DNA of 8,975 nt, taken from the sequence record CP031559.1; one strand, written 5' to 3'. Below are positions 1,295 to 8,975 of this stretch, one piece after another; position 1 is the first letter of the stretch; every line of letters starts with the position of its first letter. Under the pieces are notes generated by a model. That model saw nothing but the letters and a program-made list of their open reading frames with translations, ran no database searches and was not told where the DNA came from. Made by a program: the position numbers and the translations under genes. Source of the DNA: a plasmid.

Positions 1295-1576
1295 ATGTTA
1301 AAAGATGTAGAAATAGGAGTTAAATTTTATAAAGAATTTGGAAAATTAGAAAAACAATTAGTTAAATATCAAAGTAAGGTTTTAGAAATTAAAAAACAAA
1401 TGAAGGAGATTAAAAAGCAATATTCTCAAGCTAAGAAAGATGAGAATTTATCTAATAAATATACTCCTAATGATGAGCTAAAACAAGATTTATTAGATAT
1501 TGATAATCCTAATACGACTGAAAACTTTAAACCTAAAAATGCTAGTGAAATTTGGCAATATGCTCTTAATTCTTAG
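1295..1576 (+). CDS. Putative antitoxin (93 aa) of the YafQ/RelE-type toxin immediately downstream
   Basis: ORF with AAGGAG SD. Its stop lies 8 nt before the toxin start, which has its own AGGAG SD, giving a classic bicistronic TA arrangement. The product is Lys-rich and helical. Assignment is by position only. Confidence 0.55.
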   Translation: MLKDVEIGVKFYKEFGKLEKQLVKYQSKVLEIKKQMKEIKKQYSQAKKDENLSNKYTPNDELKQDLLDIDNPNTTENFKPKNASEIWQYALNS

Positions 1577-1584
1577 GAGCTTAA

Positions 1585-1854
1585 ATGTTAGAAATTGAGT
1601 TAAAAAAGAAATTCACTAAGGATTTAAAAAAGCATATTTTAAATCAAAAAATTGAGTTAGAAGTGTTTGACTTAGTGGTTGAAAATTTAAGAAATCAAAT
1701 TCCATTGGATAAAAGATTTAAAGACCACTCTTTAAGTGGAACATACAAAGACTGTAGAGAGTGCCACATTAAGCCTGATGTTTTGCTTGTGTATAGAGTG
1801 AAAGATAATGTTTTAACTTTGGTTAGGCTTGGAAGTCATAGTGAGTTGTTTTAG
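1585..1854 (+). CDS. YafQ/RelE-family mRNA interferase toxin (89 aa), H. pylori HP0894/HP0892-like
   Basis: The C-terminal half ...KDHSLSGTYKDCRECHIKPDVLLVYRVKDNVLTLVRLGSHSELF has the conserved YafQ-type His residues and terminal ...GSHSELF. It is strongly reminiscent of H. pylori HP0894-type toxins. Confidence 0.85.
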   Translation: MLEIELKKKFTKDLKKHILNQKIELEVFDLVVENLRNQIPLDKRFKDHSLSGTYKDCRECHIKPDVLLVYRVKDNVLTLVRLGSHSELF

Positions 1855-2276: not shown

Positions 2277-2349
2277 AGGGATTTGGGGTTGCAACACCCT
2301 AAATAACGAAGCTGTATGGTTTCTCATTTTTGGGGTTAAAATGAATAAA

Positions 2350-2447
2350 ACAGAACTTCTTACGAGTGATAACAGAACTTCTTACGAGTGATAACAGAAC
2401 TTCTTACGAGTGATAACAGAACTTCTTACGAGTGATAACAGAACTTA
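2350..2447 (+). repeat. Iterons: 4 complete + 1 partial tandem copies of the 22-bp unit ACAGAACTTCTTACGAGTGATA, followed by an AT-rich (DUE-like) stretch; replication origin
   Basis: Perfect 22-bp periodicity starting at 2351, 2373, 2395, 2417 and 2439 (partial). No spacers, so not CRISPR. Located ~330 bp upstream of repA, as for iteron-regulated theta replicons. Confidence 0.9.
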
Positions 2448-2610
2448 TTTATTTTAAAGTTATGATTATTAACAATTTTTAGCTATAATAACAACCTAAG
2501 GCGGTATAACATGGTTGCTAATCCTAGTGTTAACAAATTTGGAGAAATTAGCTTTAAAAGCTAGTGGGTTGGGAGTTTGTAGTGGGTGGCACTCTGTTAG
2601 GAGGCACACC

Positions 2611-2781: not shown

Positions 2782-4401
2782 ATGAATACGAATTTTGATC
2801 AACTTAGAAAACAAGAATTGGAATTACGAAAATTATTAGAAGAATTAGATACATTCCCACAAACCCCACAAATTAAACTGCAAAAACAAAAAATACAAAC
2901 TTACATAGACAAGATAACACCAAGTATTTTGAGCGGTTTTAATCAAAAATTCAAAGAAATTACAGAAAATTCACATGAGTTTAAAAAAGAAAAACCCACA
3001 CCCAACAAAGCACCACAAACCACCCCCACACCATGCAAGGATTTAGTGGTTAGCACCCACAAAAATAACGCCTATACCACCTACCACAATAACGCTAATA
3101 AGGTTAATCTAGGGAAATTGAGCGAAAGGGAAGCCAATCTTTTATTCGCTATTTTTCAAAAACTCAAAGATCAAGGGAATACCCTCATTCGTTTTGAACC
3201 GCAAGATTTGAAACAAATGATCATGGTCAAATCCAACCTGACCAACAGACAATTATTGCAAATCCTCAAAAACTTGCTTGACAACATAGGCGGTGCTAAT
3301 TTTTGGATCATTAGAGAGCATGTTGAAAATGGCGAAATCTATGAAGATCACACTAGCTACATGCTTTTCAAACAATTTGAAATCCGTATCCATAAGCCAA
3401 CCCAAACTATAGAATACTTAGATGTCCAACTCAATGATAGCTATCAATACTTGCTCAACAATCTAGGAATGGGCGGTCAATACACTTCTTTCAAACTTTT
3501 AGAATTCCAAAGAGTGAGAGGCAAATACGCTAAAACGCTCTATCGCTTGCTCAAGCAATACAAAAGCACAGGGATTTTGAGCGTGGAATGGGGTCAATTC
3601 AGGGAGCTTTTAGACATTCCAAAAGATTACAAAATGGAAAACATCGATCAAAAAGTCTTAACTCCAAGCCTCAAAGAACTCAGAAAAATCTATCCTTTTG
3701 AACACTTGAGCTACAAAAAAGAACGCCGAAGCCACGACAAGCGTAAGGTAACCCACATTGATTTTTATTTTGAGCAATTGCCACAGGGTGAAACCAAGCA
3801 ACAAAAACAAGCCAATAAGCAACGCGCTAAAAGGGATATTAAGCTTGTGGCATGGGATATTCACAACCAAATCGCTAAAAGAAACGCCAAAGCCACTATG
3901 GAAGCTAGGTTGCTTGAACTCAAAACCTTGATTGGCTATCAGTTCAGGCACAACAATGGGACTATTTTACAGGTTGATGACGCTACTTTTGAAAAGAATC
4001 AAATGTTTTTGCATGTTTCAACCAACAAAAAAAATTCTCAAAAATTGCTTGTATCAAGCAAGGCATTCGCTTTAGAACTTCTGTTTGTTAGTGGATACAG
4101 CCTGAAAAAAGACAGCTTGATAGAAGAAATTGATCCCCCTAAAATCCACCCTATCACCAACGAACCAATTAAGGAATTTGCAGAATACATCGGCAAAACG
4201 ATCCACATCACTAATTTCAATGTGGACAAATGCCCTGAGGGGATCAACAACTACCTGAAAATCACTAGGATTGTGAAACTGAACGACAATCGGATCTGTA
4301 TCTCAATCCAAGATGTGGACAAGCCTGACAAACTATTGAAGCCTTTCATCGCTAAAGATGAAAAACATTTGAAGAATTGGTTCAAGAAACACTACCACTG
4401 A
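2782..4401 (+). CDS. repA: Plasmid replication initiator RepA (539 aa), iteron-binding theta-replication type as on H. pylori cryptic plasmids
   Basis: Largest plus-strand ORF. It directly follows the iteron array and AT-rich region. Antisense ORFs inside it (3658..3951, 4038..4250) are compositional artefacts. Confidence 0.75.
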   Translation: MNTNFDQLRKQELELRKLLEELDTFPQTPQIKLQKQKIQTYIDKITPSILSGFNQKFKEITENSHEFKKEKPTPNKAPQTTPTPCKDLVVSTHKNNAYTTYHNNANKVNLGKLSEREANLLFAIFQKLKDQGNTLIRFEPQDLKQMIMVKSNLTNRQLLQILKNLLDNIGGANFWIIREHVENGEIYEDHTSYMLFKQFEIRIHKPTQTIEYLDVQLNDSYQYLLNNLGMGGQYTSFKLLEFQRVRGKYAKTLYRLLKQYKSTGILSVEWGQFRELLDIPKDYKMENIDQKVLTPSLKELRKIYPFEHLSYKKERRSHDKRKVTHIDFYFEQLPQGETKQQKQANKQRAKRDIKLVAWDIHNQIAKRNAKATMEARLLELKTLIGYQFRHNNGTILQVDDATFEKNQMFLHVSTNKKNSQKLLVSSKAFALELLFVSGYSLKKDSLIEEIDPPKIHPITNEPIKEFAEYIGKTIHITNFNVDKCPEGINNYLKITRIVKLNDNRICISIQDVDKPDKLLKPFIAKDEKHLKNWFKKHYH

Positions 4402-4434
4402 AAACACAAAACAGGCTAACCTGAAAGGACATGC

Positions 4435-5154
4435 ATGCCAACTAATGATTTATCTAAACTCATAGAAAAACTAAATCATGAAAAAAAGAATGCTATTAAA
4501 AATGGCATTTACCACTTAATCCAAATTAAATTTTCTTATAATTCTAATCGCATTGAGGGAAGCAGTTTGACCTACGAACAAACCGCTCATATTTTTGATA
4601 AATCCGCTCTTATAACTGAAAAAAACGAAAATATTAGACTTGATGATATTTTTGAAACCATCAATCATTTTGAATGCGTGAATTACTTGCTTGAAAGCTA
4701 TAAAGAACCTTTGAGTTTAGAATACTTTAAGACTTTACACAAAATCTTAAAAAATAATTGCTCTGATGAAGTTATTGGTGATTTTAAAAAACACCCTAAT
4801 TTTGTAGGTGATAGCGCCACAACAAGACCCCAATTAGTTGGAAGCGAATTAACAAATCTTTTGCAACGCTACCACAGCCTAACTGCAACAAGTTTGGAAA
4901 ACATCATAGATTTTCATGTGGCTTTTGAAAAGATACACCCTTTTAGCGATGGCAATGGTAGAGTGGGGCGATTAGTCATGTTTAAAGAGTGTTTGAAAAA
5001 CAATATCATACCCTTTATCATAGAAAACGAACACAAAGCTTTTTACTATAGGGGTATTAGAGAATATCACAAGACAAAAGGTTATTTGAAAGATACCATT
5101 TTGCAAAGTCAAGATAATTTCAATGAAATGGTTAGCTATTTCTTTTCTAAGTGA
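4435..5154 (+). CDS. fic: Fic/Doc-family protein (239 aa), class II (intramolecular inhibitory helix), putative AMPylating toxin/effector
   Basis: Canonical Fic motif HPFSDGNGRVGR (HPFx[D/E]GNGRxxR) in the C-terminal half. N-terminal SNRIEG matches the inhibitory [S/T]xxxE[G/N] motif. AAGGA SD before the ATG, 33 nt after the repA stop. Confidence 0.9.
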   Translation: MPTNDLSKLIEKLNHEKKNAIKNGIYHLIQIKFSYNSNRIEGSSLTYEQTAHIFDKSALITEKNENIRLDDIFETINHFECVNYLLESYKEPLSLEYFKTLHKILKNNCSDEVIGDFKKHPNFVGDSATTRPQLVGSELTNLLQRYHSLTATSLENIIDFHVAFEKIHPFSDGNGRVGRLVMFKECLKNNIIPFIIENEHKAFYYRGIREYHKTKGYLKDTILQSQDNFNEMVSYFFSK

Positions 5155-5281
5155 AACCGCTTGTTTTTGCTTGTGTGCTTTTGTTTTTTGCGTTTTTAGT
5201 TGTAGGTGGTATCAATAGTCGTTTTTTTGCTTTGCGTTGGTTGAAAGTAATTTTAGATAGCAAATCGTGGGATTGAATATA

Positions 5282-6445
5282 TTAAATTTTTACTTTGCAT
5301 AGGAATACACATGTCAAAATAAGCGTGACTATAAAATGTACAGCGATAACTATAGTCGGAGAAAAAATAAGTAGCTCCAAACTTGTTATGCCTAAAATAA
5401 TAACAGAAATTACTCGTGAGACACTAGATTTTAGAGAAGTAAGGGATGAGATTTTCTCTTTGCTGACATAAAGAGAAAATTGATAACTTACAATAAAATC
5501 TATGTATGTAAACAAGGCAACACTGATCATATAGGCACTAACAAATAGCAATATGTCCATACTTAGCAATAGTGCACTAGCAAGTCCAGTTAAAAAGATC
5601 ATGGTAATAGTCATATATCGGTTATACGAGTTGGCGTTACAAAAATGAACGAGAATTCCTATAATTTGAAATGATATATAAAATATAAACAAGTAGTTTT
5701 CTGTAATCTGTTTGTCTAGAAAGTAGGCTTGCCATAATTGAAAATGACTTTGAAAAAAGATTTGCAAAATTAAACTGAGTAGAATTAGATTTTTAAGAAG
5801 TGTTTTATCTTTTAGCTCTCTAAAACTTTCCCTTACATGTTGTTTTAATATCTGCAACTGTCGCTTTTTTTCTAGTTTATGAGAAGAATCGTCTTTAAAA
5901 AATAAAATAATGACCGAGATACACAGTAATGTAAACAAGACTGATATGTAGTACATGGAGACACCATATTTTAAATACAAGAATGAGCCTGAGCAACTTC
6001 CAATTATCAACCCTATAAAACTGATTTGGCGACTTTTAGCAATGAATGGTGATAAATCTTCTTTTTGGTCTTTGATGTTAGTAATGAGAGTGGCATCAAT
6101 GGTACCTGAGTCTAGAGCGTTTGATAACCCATAAATGCTCCATGCTAGAACCATACTAACAAAGCTGTCTAACCATAGAACACAAAAAAAACTGCATACT
6201 AAAACTAATTTTGAAACAATAAAAAGCATCTTTCTATTTATTAAATCTGCTAACACACCACTCGGATATTCTGAGAGTAAAACACACAAACTGTAGGTGG
6301 CTTGTATGATCATAATTTGACTTAATGATAATCCTTTATTGAGCAATAATGGTGTTAAAATGGCGTGTGGCAAAGACTGAGCAATGACAAGTAGCATCGT
6401 TGCACAGTAATAAGAGAGTATATTTACTTTTAGTGCTTTGTTCAT
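5282..6445 (-). CDS. mccC: MFS-family efflux transporter, MccC-like (387 aa); export/self-immunity pump for microcin C-like compound
   Basis: Highly hydrophobic with ~12 predicted TM segments. Immediately downstream of (11 nt after) the MccB-like gene on the same strand. Confidence 0.75.
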   Translation of the reverse strand: MNKALKVNILSYYCATMLLVIAQSLPHAILTPLLLNKGLSLSQIMIIQATYSLCVLLSEYPSGVLADLINRKMLFIVSKLVLVCSFFCVLWLDSFVSMVLAWSIYGLSNALDSGTIDATLITNIKDQKEDLSPFIAKSRQISFIGLIIGSCSGSFLYLKYGVSMYYISVLFTLLCISVIILFFKDDSSHKLEKKRQLQILKQHVRESFRELKDKTLLKNLILLSLILQIFFQSHFQLWQAYFLDKQITENYLFIFYISFQIIGILVHFCNANSYNRYMTITMIFLTGLASALLLSMDILLFVSAYMISVALFTYIDFIVSYQFSLYVSKEKISSLTSLKSSVSRVISVIILGITSLELLIFSPTIVIAVHFIVTLILTCVFLCKVKI

Positions 6446-6456
6446 ATTAAGAAACT

Positions 6457-7509
6457 CTATAAATTATGATTAGAGCAAAATACACATTTATAATCTACAC
6501 TAGATGGCAAAGTGTATGTTTTGAAAGTTTTGTTGTCAACTCCGAATCGGCAGTTCAGGGATTTTATGGAGTTAAAATCATCAGACATAAATTGTATAAT
6601 ATCTGAAATTGCTAGGCTAGAAGCGATAGAGTTATTTAAAAAACTTGATGGTGCCTGCATGCGGTCATTTATAAGACATATGTCCAGATTTTTATCACTG
6701 TCTTTTTTATCATCTAGAGCAAAACTATTATGGCAAAAAGGACAACAAGACAATGAAGGGATATAAAAAGGACCGATAAGAGATATGTCATTTAAATAGC
6801 CAATATTTAAAAATGGAATGAGACACTTACAAAAAAATCTCGTTGCCAATTGTACTGTGTTTGGATTATCTCCAGAAACAATTCCAAACAAATTTTCTTT
6901 TTTATGTTTAGAAAAAATTTCTTCAAGATTGTATTCACTGGCAAAATCATCTACTATCTCAATATTGATGTCAAATCTACTAGAAAGAGCCTGCTTTATG
7001 GTAGATGTTTTATATTGTGAAATGTAATTCTTGTCAAACAAGAACTGGCGGTTAAGATTGCTGGGATCAACGGTATCCTTATCTAACAATATTAGTTTTT
7101 TTGGATAAAAACTTGCTAGAGCATAGCTTACAAAATTTCCAATACCCCCACAACCAATAATGATGAAAATAGTTCTTTTAAAATTATTTATTGTTAATTC
7201 TGGTTTATTTGACATTAAATCGATAAACAGGTGGTTCTTAAAGTTTTGTTTGTCATTTGGATTTAGTATGAATGAGGTAATAAGTTTATTAGCAACTAGC
7301 TTATCAAAAATATCATGTTCTATTTTGTTAGCTTCCATAAAACTTTTTATCTCATTCATTCTTTTCTTCATTCTCAGAAAAACCAATAATCTCAGTGATT
7401 TTTCAAATTCATTATGATCAACGCAATACTGATATGTTCCAAGACCAATAATATTTTCTGTATCTGTTTGACCAACACATGCACTAAAACTAGTTTGATA
7501 ACACTGCAT
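6457..7509 (-). CDS. mccB: MccB-like ThiF/E1-type peptide C-terminal adenylyltransferase (350 aa)
   Basis: Rossmann motif IIIGCGGIGNF, followed by LLDKDTVDPSNLNRQ (the ThiF/MoeB/E1 signature). Two CxxC pairs (CCPFC..., ...CVFC) as in the MccB Zn site. Length is identical to E. coli MccB (350 aa). Preceded by a 7-codon Asn-terminal peptide gene. Confidence 0.85.
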   Translation of the reverse strand: MQCYQTSFSACVGQTDTENIIGLGTYQYCVDHNEFEKSLRLLVFLRMKKRMNEIKSFMEANKIEHDIFDKLVANKLITSFILNPNDKQNFKNHLFIDLMSNKPELTINNFKRTIFIIIGCGGIGNFVSYALASFYPKKLILLDKDTVDPSNLNRQFLFDKNYISQYKTSTIKQALSSRFDINIEIVDDFASEYNLEEIFSKHKKENLFGIVSGDNPNTVQLATRFFCKCLIPFLNIGYLNDISLIGPFYIPSLSCCPFCHNSFALDDKKDSDKNLDICLINDRMQAPSSFLNNSIASSLAISDIIQFMSDDFNSIKSLNCRFGVDNKTFKTYTLPSSVDYKCVFCSNHNL

Positions 7510-7562
7510 AAATAACCTTTCCTGAATAACTAACTCTACTCCGATAAAACTTTGAGCAATTA

Positions 7563-7579
7563 CACTCTAAAATAGAGTG
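7563..7579 (-). terminator. Hairpin CACTCTA-TTT-TAGAGTG in the mccA-mccB intergenic region; candidate partial terminator/attenuator
   Basis: 7-bp perfect stem with 3-nt loop seen directly. The downstream U-tract is weak (TAATTGC...). Resembles the read-through terminator between mccA and mccB in E. coli. Confidence 0.3.
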
Positions 7580-7593
7580 CAAAATTTTTCAAT

Positions 7594-7617
7594 TTAATTA
7601 CGGTATGACAATTTCAT
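7594..7617 (-). CDS. mccA: Microcin C-like precursor heptapeptide MccA (MKLSYRN-stop)
   Basis: Minus strand reads ATAAAGGAGTAAGCC ATG AAA TTG TCA TAC CGT AAT TAA. This gives an AAGGAG SD with 6-nt spacing, a 7-codon ORF ending in Asn, and placement 85 nt upstream of mccB. That is the defining architecture of mcc operons (E. coli MccA = MRTGNAN). Confidence 0.75.
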   Translation of the reverse strand: MKLSYRN

Positions 7618-7788
7618 GGCTTACTCCTTTATAACTCTAAAAATTACGGAAATAATAACAATAATTATGATTTTTTTATTTACTGATTACATATTCGTAA
7701 TAATATTTTTTGTAGTTTGAGTATATTTTGCACGATAAGGTGGCACTAAAGTAATTTTTACAGATATAAAAAAAGAATTTTTTAACCC
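7618..7788 (-). promoter_or_regulatory. Promoter region of the mcc operon (between mobA stop and mccA); several AT-rich -10-like hexamers, e.g. TATACT after TGCAAAA
   Basis: Non-coding, 170 nt, extremely AT-rich. Exact -10/-35 not resolvable by eye. Confidence 0.3.
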
Positions 7789-8975
7789 TTACCGCCCGTA
7801 CCCACGAATATAATTTCTCTCATTTTCTATTTTTTGATTGTGTTCTCTAATCTTTTTATCCAGCTGTGTTGTTCTTGTATAAAACTCTCTTGTTTCTTGT
7901 TCCATTCGCTTTGAAAGTCGCTCATCTGCTCTTTGAAAGAAGTTTCTAATTCGTTCTTTTGCGTTTCTGTAGATGTCTTTAATTGCGTTAATTGCGTCTC
8001 GTGTTCTTGCATAAAGGTTGTGTAGGATTGTTCTAGCTCTTGTTTTAGAGTTGTTTCTAAAATCTCTAATTGTGTTTTCAATTCTTTGTATTGAGCTTGT
8101 GAAATCTCTTGCTCTTTGATTTGAGCGTTCTGTAATTCTTGTTGTAAAATCCGCTCGCACATTGTCTGTAAATTGTTGTTGAGCGAGATTTCTTTCTGTT
8201 CTAATGTTTGCATTAATTGATTCAATTCGGCTCTCTCTGCTCTCTCTAAAGCTTGAAGTTTGGCTAATAATGTGTTGTGCGTTTGGGATAGCGTTTCGTA
8301 GCTCTCTTTCAAGTTCAAGGTTTCTGTCTCTAATCTCTCGTAATTCTTGCTTAGCCTTTAAAATTCTTCTGTAACTTTCTCTAGCTTGATCAATAGCTCG
8401 TTTTTGTCGTTCTCTAAACTCTCTATTTCGCTGTTCTTTTCTTTGAGCAAGATCTCTTTCTCGTTCTGTAAGTTCTCTACTTCGCTGATTAAAGCGCTCT
8501 GTAGCTTGTTTAAGTATTATTCCTGCATTTTTTCCCCTTATTTCTTGGTCGGTATTTGATCGTAAATTCTCTGTAGATTGGCGTTGTTTAGTTGGTCTAT
8601 TTCTCGTTTTAACTGAAAGACTTCTTTCTGTGAAAGCTCTAATTCCTTGTTTTTGCTGGGTAGAATGATTAGAAAGTATGCCCCCACTAATATTACCCCC
8701 ATAATAACTAGCCCCATAATGAAAGTTAGGGGCATTAGTAAGGATTTCTTGGCTAGGTTCTTGTGGATTTATTTCTCTAGCTCTTGTAAATCCTCTTGTA
8801 TAGTTTCCTTGTATTTCTTGTTGGTTCTCTCCAGCTCTAGGTAGCTGTTCTTTAGGTTCTCGTGGTTCTTTTGAATTAAATTCGTGTAGCTGTTTATAGT
8901 ATTGCTGTTTGTATTCAATGTGTCTGTGTAGCTTGTTTTCAAGCTCTCGCAAAAGTTCTGCATGGTTGTTGTTAG
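7789..8975 (-). CDS. mobA: 3' part of relaxase MobA (low-complexity R/E/N/Q-rich C-terminal domain); open to the window end and in frame with the partial mobA at 1..796 if circular
   Basis: Frame open from 8975 to TAA at 7789-7791 with no stop. The annotated 'M' at 8952 is a TTG. Codon phase from 8973 downward matches the phase that continues from position 1 (codon = comp(1),comp(8975),comp(8974) = ACT). Composition matches the end of the N-terminal fragment (...ARQRENQRERSNSYT). Confidence 0.6.
   Translation of the reverse strand, partial: NNNHAELLRELENKLHRHIEYKQQYYKQLHEFNSKEPREPKEQLPRAGENQQEIQGNYTRGFTRAREINPQEPSQEILTNAPNFHYGASYYGGNISGGILSNHSTQQKQGIRAFTERSLSVKTRNRPTKQRQSTENLRSNTDQEIRGKNAGIILKQATERFNQRSRELTERERDLAQRKEQRNREFRERQKRAIDQARESYRRILKAKQELREIRDRNLELERELRNAIPNAQHIISQTSSFRESRESRIESINANIRTERNLAQQQFTDNVRADFTTRITERSNQRARDFTSSIQRIENTIRDFRNNSKTRARTILHNLYARTRDAINAIKDIYRNAKERIRNFFQRADERLSKRMEQETREFYTRTTQLDKKIREHNQKIENERNYIRGYGR
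7827..8318 (-). CDS. mobB: MobB/MbeB-like coiled-coil protein nested in an alternative frame of mobA (start uncertain; the annotated start is TTG)
   Basis: Second open minus-strand frame inside mobA (the third frame is closed). Product is E/Q/K/L-rich coiled coil. ColE1-type mob regions encode mbeB/mbeD inside mbeA in another frame. Confidence 0.4.
   Translation of the reverse strand: MNLKESYETLSQTHNTLLAKLQALERAERAELNQLMQTLEQKEISLNNNLQTMCERILQQELQNAQIKEQEISQAQYKELKTQLEILETTLKQELEQSYTTFMQEHETQLTQLKTSTETQKNELETSFKEQMSDFQSEWNKKQESFIQEQHSWIKRLENTIKK
8538..8735 (-). CDS. mobD: MobD/MbeD-like small membrane protein (65 aa: N-terminal TM helix + coiled coil) nested in alternative frame of mobA
   Basis: Genuine ATG start. 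N-terminus MPLTFIMGLVIMGVILVGAYFLIIL is a clear TM helix followed by charged coiled coil. Same alternative frame as the mobB-like ORF. Confidence 0.45.
   Translation of the reverse strand: MPLTFIMGLVIMGVILVGAYFLIILPSKNKELELSQKEVFQLKREIDQLNNANLQRIYDQIPTKK
8769..8963 (-). CDS. Additional 64-aa ORF in the same alternative frame of mobA (coiled-coil-like); possibly an N-terminal segment of a mobB/D-type protein or non-functional
   Basis: ATG at 8963. The stop is immediately followed, in frame, by the mobD-like ORF. Supported only by frame openness and protein-like composition. Confidence 0.2.
   Translation of the reverse strand: MQNFCESLKTSYTDTLNTNSNTINSYTNLIQKNHENLKNSYLELERTNKKYKETIQEDLQELEK

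Follow-up and report, generated by a model that had tools for sequence, protein, structure and literature searches.

Does a small plasmid of Helicobacter pylori carry a working peptidyl-nucleotide antibiotic operon, or the remains of one? The question is raised by positions 5282 to 7617 of sequence record CP031559.1, a stretch of 8,975 bp with 33.4% GC that was analysed over its whole length and is called the window here. An earlier note, made from the letters alone, had placed three co-oriented minus-strand genes in this region and compared them with the microcin C cluster mccA-mccB-mccC; its coordinates turn out to be exact to the base. In our analysis, the region is very probably an intact minimal mccABC operon of the H. 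pylori pHel4/pHPP12 plasmid type, which would make MKLSYRD-AMP by the published scheme. What carries this reading is the anatomy of the genes, the family assignment by sequence and fold, the near-identity of the products to proteins tested by others, and the conservation of the operon, all of which are observed directly. Two further parts come from the literature on near-identical copies, namely attenuation and adenylation, demonstrated in vitro, and the uptake and aspartyl-tRNA synthetase steps, demonstrated in E. coli.

The precursor gene and its leader

The first gene, mccA, encodes the heptapeptide MKLSYRN. As the earlier note had proposed, it ends on an asparagine codon and has a strong Shine-Dalgarno sequence, AGGAG, with six bases to the ATG. 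Open reading frames (ORFs) of seven codons that start with ATG and end in asparagine occur just twice on the whole circle when both strands are counted. Since mccA is the sole one of the two with a Shine-Dalgarno sequence, and lies directly 5' of mccB on the same strand, it is more than a chance ORF. The peptide is unaltered in all 12 aligned related loci. For H. acinonychis the alignment, with 72% identity, is restricted to the 3' part of the 320-nt reference, namely the portion that begins roughly 100 nt before mccA and reaches into mccB. Within it, mccA has two synonymous changes (TTG to TTA and CGT to CGC) and zero replacements, which argues for selection on the peptide.

Automated annotation passes the gene over, as the note had anticipated for standard gene callers. 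The RefSeq tables fetched for the sister plasmids list no mccA, and name the other two genes "ThiF family adenylyltransferase" and "MFS transporter". In contrast, the hand-annotated GenBank record of pHPP12 (CP001218) lists MccA, MccB and MccC.

To judge from the sequence, the mcc promoter and 5' untranslated region must lie in the leader that separates mccA from the stop codon of the relaxase gene (Table 1); this leader is conserved at 91-99% across H. pylori plasmids. A scan for sigma-70-type promoters gave 18 matches, against 15.6 in shuffled sequences; this is no excess, and the promoter was not located. In strain G27, mccB-mccC is repressed by nickel via NikR, which leaves a footprint on the promoter (Vannini et al. 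2017, PMC5385501). The NikR consensus of that work, TRTTA-N15-TAWTA, has zero matches in the leader at no more than one mismatch, and the older consensus TATWATT-N11-AATWATA, with up to three mismatches, is uninformative upstream of mccA (14 matches versus 11 expected). The NikR operator of pHPG27 is thus not placeable here by consensus alone. Large transcript changes upon loss of a CATG methyltransferase have also been reported (Yano et al. 2020, PMC7379913).

The modifying enzyme MccB

The earlier note took the second gene product, of 350 residues, for an MccB-type E1/ThiF enzyme, and the motifs that it named are present: GCGGIG (as GxGxxG), SNLNRQ, and the two CxxC pairs CPFC and CVFC. The protein matches Pfam ThiF with an E-value of 3e-20. 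Its top relatives among solved structures are the E. coli MccB entries, with E-values from 7e-32 to about 1e-31, and its CxxC pairs line up with those of E. coli MccB. Homologues from a large protein database span 98-99% of the query. In an alignment of 70 sequences, G119/G121/G124, D143, N151, Q155, K167, D214, C259, C342 and C345 are invariant, and R154 and C256 nearly so; three of the four zinc-binding cysteines belong to the invariant group.

The hallmark that separates MccB and PaaA from housekeeping ThiF/MoeB enzymes is an N-terminal peptide clamp. This part was examined by fold, because pairwise sequence comparison with the structural relatives aligned residues 89-348 only and cannot detect the clamp in residues 1-88. 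The AlphaFold model has a mean predicted local distance difference test score (pLDDT) of 94 and a predicted template modelling score (pTM) of 0.92. Residues 1-80 are modelled with a pLDDT of 93-98, as strands (residues 3-30) followed by three helices. Foldseek superposes the model on the E. coli MccB-MccA complexes with a template modelling (TM) score of 0.84 across some 350 columns, compared with 0.60 across about 268 columns for ThiF, and 0.65 (8e-19) for PaaA. Since the superposition on E. coli MccB extends over the full length, the clamp is present in the predicted structure. The E1-like domain with its glycine motif and cysteine tetrad was thus recovered by sequence, and the clamp that the note had expected beside it by structure prediction. 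The two MccB proteins share both parts, with 33% identity over residues 91-348, whereas the N-terminal 88 residues of the window protein are not sequence-alignable with E. coli MccB.

These data also bear on a more prosaic reading, in which the 350-residue protein is a housekeeping ThiF/MoeB adenylyltransferase, the transporter encoded downstream is a general drug-efflux protein similar to HP1165 or to tetracycline pumps, and the seven-codon ORF is a coincidence. The RefSeq names fit such a reading, and so do weak NCBIfam ThiF/MoeB matches and a full-length, sub-threshold match of the transporter to the HP1165 family. PaaA, the maturation enzyme of pantocin A, and the ThiF, MoeB and E1 enzymes indeed share the Rossmann-type adenylation domain, the GxGxxG motif and the cysteine tetrad with MccB. 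However, the NCBIfam ThiF/MoeB scores remain far under their cut-offs (at best 58 versus 159 bits), and MccB leads the other relatives in the PDB by 25 orders of magnitude in E-value, with other E1/ThiF enzymes matching only at about 1e-6. PaaA matches the model much more weakly than E. coli MccB does. The clamp, which is missing from ThiF and MoeB with their typical size of about 240-250 residues, is confidently predicted and superposes on that of MccB. No ubiquitin-like sulfur carrier is encoded on the plasmid, and no ThiS- or MoaD-like gene occurs in the window. Finally, the peptide is conserved and a proven substrate, and its published adenylation refutes the housekeeping role for the enzyme (PMC4010828). 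We consider such a role hardly credible.

The chemistry has been worked out by Bantysh et al. 2014 for the pHPP12 pair (PMC4010828). The MccB of pHPP12 uses ATP to convert synthetic MKLSYRN to MKLSYRD-AMP. This product inhibits E. coli B, whereas a yejB mutant is not inhibited, in line with uptake by YejABEF. For E. coli MccA, the same source gives masses of 763.5 before and 1092.5 after the reaction; with this shift of 329 Da, unformylated MKLSYRN, which has a calculated [M+H]+ of about 911.5, would move to about 1240.5 (28 more if formylated). The processed compound targets aspartyl-tRNA synthetase. The same source reports that the MccB of pHPM8, which is missing 46 N-terminal residues, is inactive. 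Compared with pHPP12, the window encodes an identical MccA, an MccB with 346 of 350 residues identical (98.9%), and an MccC that differs at 8 of 387 positions (97.9% identical). The four positions at which MccB differs (170, 185, 215 and 230) are all outside the invariant and nearly invariant columns. With an identical peptide and an enzyme this close in sequence, the window MccB would be expected to adenylate MKLSYRN as well.

Some MccB homologues are cytidylyltransferases. The H. pylori enzyme might therefore make another conjugate in vivo, either a cytidylate or a further modified compound, as in the mcc-like systems of Yersinia and Bacillus, and MKLSYRD-AMP would then be an in vitro surrogate. 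For the H. pylori MccA/MccB pair, the available part of the published study describes only reactions that contain ATP (PMC4010828). Yet the ATP product is formed and is biologically active (PMC4010828), MccB is a plain protein of 350 residues with no C-terminal fusion, and the window lacks methyltransferase domains and any further gene for modification. A different natural product is thus quite improbable, and MKLSYRD-AMP remains the expected one.

Operon layout and proposed mechanism

The third gene follows mccB immediately and belongs to the MFS family, as the earlier note had recognized; its product, MccC, matches Pfam MFS_1 (8.5e-16) and has a predicted role in transport. Between mccA and mccB lies a long spacer with a terminator-like hairpin, for which a role in attenuation is putative in the window and has an experimental precedent. 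Working in vitro with the 84-bp mccA-mccB spacer of pHPG27, Zukher et al. 2014 observed that a bound ribosome induces transcription to terminate past the hairpin (PMC4231749). In the window, the RNAfold centroid retains no helix other than this hairpin, and the same palindrome was picked up by a terminator scan. All aligned plasmids keep the hairpin stem, and so does H. acinonychis, although with a larger loop. Of the five positions at which the aligned spacers of the window and pHPG27 differ, zero are inside the hairpin.

The proposed mechanism is as follows. A single promoter upstream of mccA would drive all three genes. A ribosome on the very short mccA ORF would promote termination at the spacer hairpin, so that mccA transcripts would far outnumber those of mccBC. 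MccB would grip MKLSYRN by its N-terminal clamp and use two ATP, so that the C-terminal asparagine is converted via a succinimide intermediate to an aspartate joined to AMP by a phosphoramidate bond. The MFS pump MccC would export the product and keep the producer alive. A sensitive cell would take up the compound via an oligopeptide permease of the YejABEF type. Aminopeptidases would then remove the peptide, and the freed, non-hydrolysable aspartyl-adenylate would block aspartyl-tRNA synthetase. We infer production in H. pylori, and a natural target. As the literature does, we also infer immunity through MccC alone.

Intact and broken copies

The mcc region is held by 30 H. pylori plasmids at 95-99% identity. 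The copies of pHPP12, pHPG27, pHel4, pHPM8 and pHPF30 represent the same operon as in the window, with the same gene order and spacing, including the 84-nt spacer between mccA and mccB, and the window differs from the known H. pylori copies by point substitutions only. The backbone of the pHel4/pHPP12-type plasmids is shared as well (Rep_3 initiator, Fic, MobA/C relaxosome, YafQ toxin module). The original description is that of Hofler et al. 2004, as cited in Kawai et al. 2011 (PMC3120642), who list the same peptide on pHPF30. In the alignment of 12 leader loci, mccB starts with ATG in the window plasmid, pHPP12, pUM196 and one draft genome, and with GTG in pHPG27, pHPM8 and three draft genomes.

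Other copies are damaged. In A45-type plasmids, an IS607/TnpB insertion takes out mccA and the N-terminus of MccB. The MccB of pUM196 contains a tandem duplication of 56 residues within the Rossmann fold (406 residues in total), which could be an assembly artefact. Some other H. pylori plasmids retain part of mccC only. The H. acinonychis Sheeba chromosome (AM260522) carries a remnant of the operon with adjoining IS200/IS605-family genes. Its mccA is intact, and so is its mccC, at 87% identity, whereas an internal deletion of approximately residues 24-194 has reduced mccB to an ORF of 167 residues. A 777-nt contig of "Lysobacter prati" (VLNV01000030.1, coverage 1.8), which is 99% identical to the 3' end of H. 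pylori mccB and the 5' end of mccC, is almost certainly assembly contamination.

The frequency of such decay is the main argument for the most serious alternative, according to which the window operon is a silent or decaying relic that persists with its plasmid and makes no antibiotic in H. pylori. Truncated MccB in pHPM8, the A45-type insertion, the pUM196 duplication, the H. acinonychis deletion and the partial mccC genes all point in this direction. As many sister plasmids carry broken copies, selection for production is evidently not universal. The window copy, in contrast, is free of the pHPM8 frameshift, the A45 insertion, the pUM196 duplication and the H. acinonychis deletion. All three of its ORFs are full length, and its mccB begins with ATG and encodes a complete N-terminus, like the active pHPP12 allele and unlike the defective pHPM8 form. 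Moreover, only synonymous changes separate mccA from its H. acinonychis counterpart, transcription and regulation of the operon have been observed in G27 and P12, and the pHPP12 enzyme is active in the published assay (PMC4010828). A relic is therefore unlikely, and we favour an intact, productive operon.

Apart from the broken sister copies, several points weigh against this preference. No paper that we found shows that H. pylori makes or secretes the compound or identifies an in vivo product, and Zukher et al. 2014 wrote that compound production by H. pylori mcc operons had yet to be shown (PMC4231749). Nor did the literature search find a demonstration of export or immunity by MccC, or of the natural target. 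MccC may be the exporter, but its identity to E. coli MccC is only 23% (E 5e-11). The hairpin lacks a clean U-tract on the mcc strand, and the complete 141-nt leader does not fold more stably than shuffled sequences do (z = -0.63); within this fold, the local hairpin alone is meaningful.

Table 1. Positions of the mcc operon, its plasmid neighbours and the loci used for comparison (window coordinates unless a locus is named)
Feature	Position	Strand	Description
mccA	7617-7594	-	7 codons, ATGAAATTGTCATACCGTAATTAA = MKLSYRN*
mcc leader, relaxase stop to mccA	7618..7788	-	carries AGGAG at 7628-7624; relaxase ORF ends at 7789
mccA-mccB spacer	7510..7593	-	84 nt
Hairpin, putative ribosome-dependent terminator	7560..7582	-	10-bp stem, 3-nt loop; RNAfold centroid and terminator scan
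mccB	7509-6457	-	350-residue MccB-type peptide adenylyltransferase; clamp (about residues 1-88, predicted) and E1/ThiF domain with zinc-binding Cys tetrad
mccC	6445-5282	-	387-residue MFS transporter, presumed exporter and self-immunity pump; 11-nt gap after mccB
Pump comparison, window	5282-6445	-
Pump comparison, L013	5001-6167
Pump comparison, L019 (H. mustelae)	4010-5206
Pump comparison, L008	5995-7146
Relaxase gene	7789-8975 joined to 1-about 800	-	one 663-codon frame across the window ends
Counterpart of a nested mob ORF	7827-8318		example; inside the relaxase gene, other frame
YafQ/RelE-type toxin region	1295-1854	+	toxin at 1585-1854
22-bp tandem repeats	2349-2458		about 4.4 perfect copies
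Rep_3 initiator gene	2782-4401		downstream of the repeats
Fic protein	4435-5154	+
Hydrophobic ORF	5151-5276	+	41 codons; overlaps the Fic stop codon
H. acinonychis mcc remnant, L010	about 5300-7164		chromosome AM260522
Borrelia nietonii lp89 trio, L003	2867-5189		7-codon, ThiF-family and MFS genes
H. mustelae candidate precursor ORF, L019	2803-2856		17 residues, Asn-terminal

MccC and chromosomal pumps of Helicobacter

MccC gives a full-length match to the NCBIfam family of HP1165-type MFS efflux transporters. With 434.6 bits against a family cut-off of 700, it is a paralogue of HP1165 and not HP1165 itself. HP1165, a chromosomal MFS protein annotated as a tetracycline/multidrug efflux pump, shares 52% identity with MccC across 99% of the length. 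A scan of contigs with MccC found close relatives only and missed HP1165, which was reached by a protein search. In the two places where its surroundings were inspected (one complete chromosome and one 7.4-kb contig), the gene is a solitary one, flanked by pgi and a thioredoxin-reductase-like gene, and has neither mccA nor mccB in its vicinity. HP1165 is present in very many H. pylori assemblies, and single clusters at 90% identity hold thousands of member sequences.

The operon-linked MFS pump of H. mustelae is likewise 52% identical to MccC, the same distance as HP1165; E. coli MccC, at 23%, is much more remote. In H. vulpis there is an orphan pump that is 71% identical to the H. mustelae pump.

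It is tempting to speculate that the stand-alone MccC-like pumps of Helicobacter, including HP1165, are orphan immunity exporters, and that HP1165 determines how sensitive H. pylori cells that lack the plasmid are to MKLSYRD-AMP. We regard this as doubtful, and the literature search found nothing tying HP1165 to microcin C. The kinship between HP1165 and MccC is a lead rather than a finding, although it is the one lead of some interest.

The plasmid and the neighbouring genes

The frame of the relaxase gene continues across both ends of the window, which is therefore a complete circular plasmid. Its closest relative in the plasmid collection is pUM196. The backbone comprises a Rep_3 initiator with 22-bp iterons, a Fic protein, MobC and a YafQ-type toxin. 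None of the eight large ORFs of the complete plasmid encodes an equivalent of MccD, MccE or MccF (a methyltransferase, GNAT or S66 peptidase domain), in agreement with the earlier note. The operon is therefore of the minimal type and not of the E. coli mccABCDEF type, which has aminopropylation and dedicated immunity genes.

The Fic gene and mccC point towards each other here, as they do in pHPM8, pHPG27, pUM196 and the A45 plasmid. The Fic protein has an intact catalytic motif, HPFSDGNGRVGR, and the N-terminal inhibitory motif SNRIEG. A role of Fic as an immunity factor was considered and set aside, as nothing beyond the conserved adjacency speaks for it and there is no known functional link to mcc. 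A hydrophobic ORF overlaps the Fic stop codon (Table 1). Upstream of the Rep_3 initiator gene, the tandem copies of the 22-bp unit AACAGAACTTCTTACGAGTGAT are the iterons to be expected at a replication origin. The YafQ/RelE-type toxin (Pfam YafQ_toxin, 7e-30) is preceded, 8 nt 5' of it, by an ORF of 93 residues with no family match, presumably the antitoxin. In pHPP12, nested mobB and mobD ORFs have been annotated inside the relaxase gene in another frame, and the window has counterparts of these.

More distant systems

The microcin C7 operon of E. coli (mccABCDE and mccF, for example on a plasmid of ATCC 25922) resembles the window operon in several respects. In both, mccA has seven codons, ends in asparagine and has a strong Shine-Dalgarno sequence, a hairpin lies in the spacer between mccA and mccB (74 nt in E. 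coli, 84 nt here), and an MFS-type mccC is located directly 3' of mccB. The differences are equally clear. The MccA peptides are unrelated (MRTGNAN in E. coli, MKLSYRN here), and mccB and mccC overlap in E. coli but are separated by a short gap here. Only the E. coli operon encodes MccD and the N-terminal domain of MccE for aminopropylation, and the C-terminal GNAT domain of MccE and the S66 peptidase MccF for immunity.

A comparable arrangement is found in spirochaetes. On plasmid lp89 of Borrelia nietonii, the single Borrelia locus inspected, a seven-codon ORF for MRGKTLN with a GGAGG Shine-Dalgarno sequence precedes genes for a ThiF-family protein (36% identical to MccB, from residue 14) and an MFS protein (33% identical to MccC). 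By its sequence, this locus is an mccABC-like trio. MccB homologues with 35-37% identity are also encoded on plasmids of relapsing-fever Borrelia, including B. miyamotoi and B. coriaceae, and occur among the proteins of B. hermsii and B. duttonii. No paper was found that joins Borrelia with MccB and microcin C.

Closer to H. pylori, the chromosome of H. mustelae encodes an MccB homologue with 49% identity, next to the MFS gene mentioned above. No heptapeptide ORF was found upstream of this homologue; a candidate ORF of 17 residues ending in asparagine, MNKVKHLQCCDYKTFNN, lies about 145 nt before mccB.

Implications

The discovery value of the locus is small. The peptide, the chemistry of the enzyme, the attenuation and part of the regulation are in print, and the announcement of the GD63 plasmid (CP031559) lists mccABC by name (PMC6386569). 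The description of such clusters as "known but rarely annotated" in the earlier note is apt in so far as the operon is known and RefSeq omits mccA, but it understates a literature that covers chemistry, attenuation and regulation. The experiments that the note proposed have largely been published already, except for a test in the native host. The case shows once more that automated annotation drops a seven-codon precursor gene and names the enzyme merely "ThiF family".

With an intact allele of the active type, the plasmid and its strain are suitable for work on the native product, its natural target and self-immunity. If the stand-alone pumps of Helicobacter were indeed orphan immunity exporters, the plasmid-borne microcin would mainly hit other stomach bacteria, or H. 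pylori strains with low HP1165, and not H. pylori in general.

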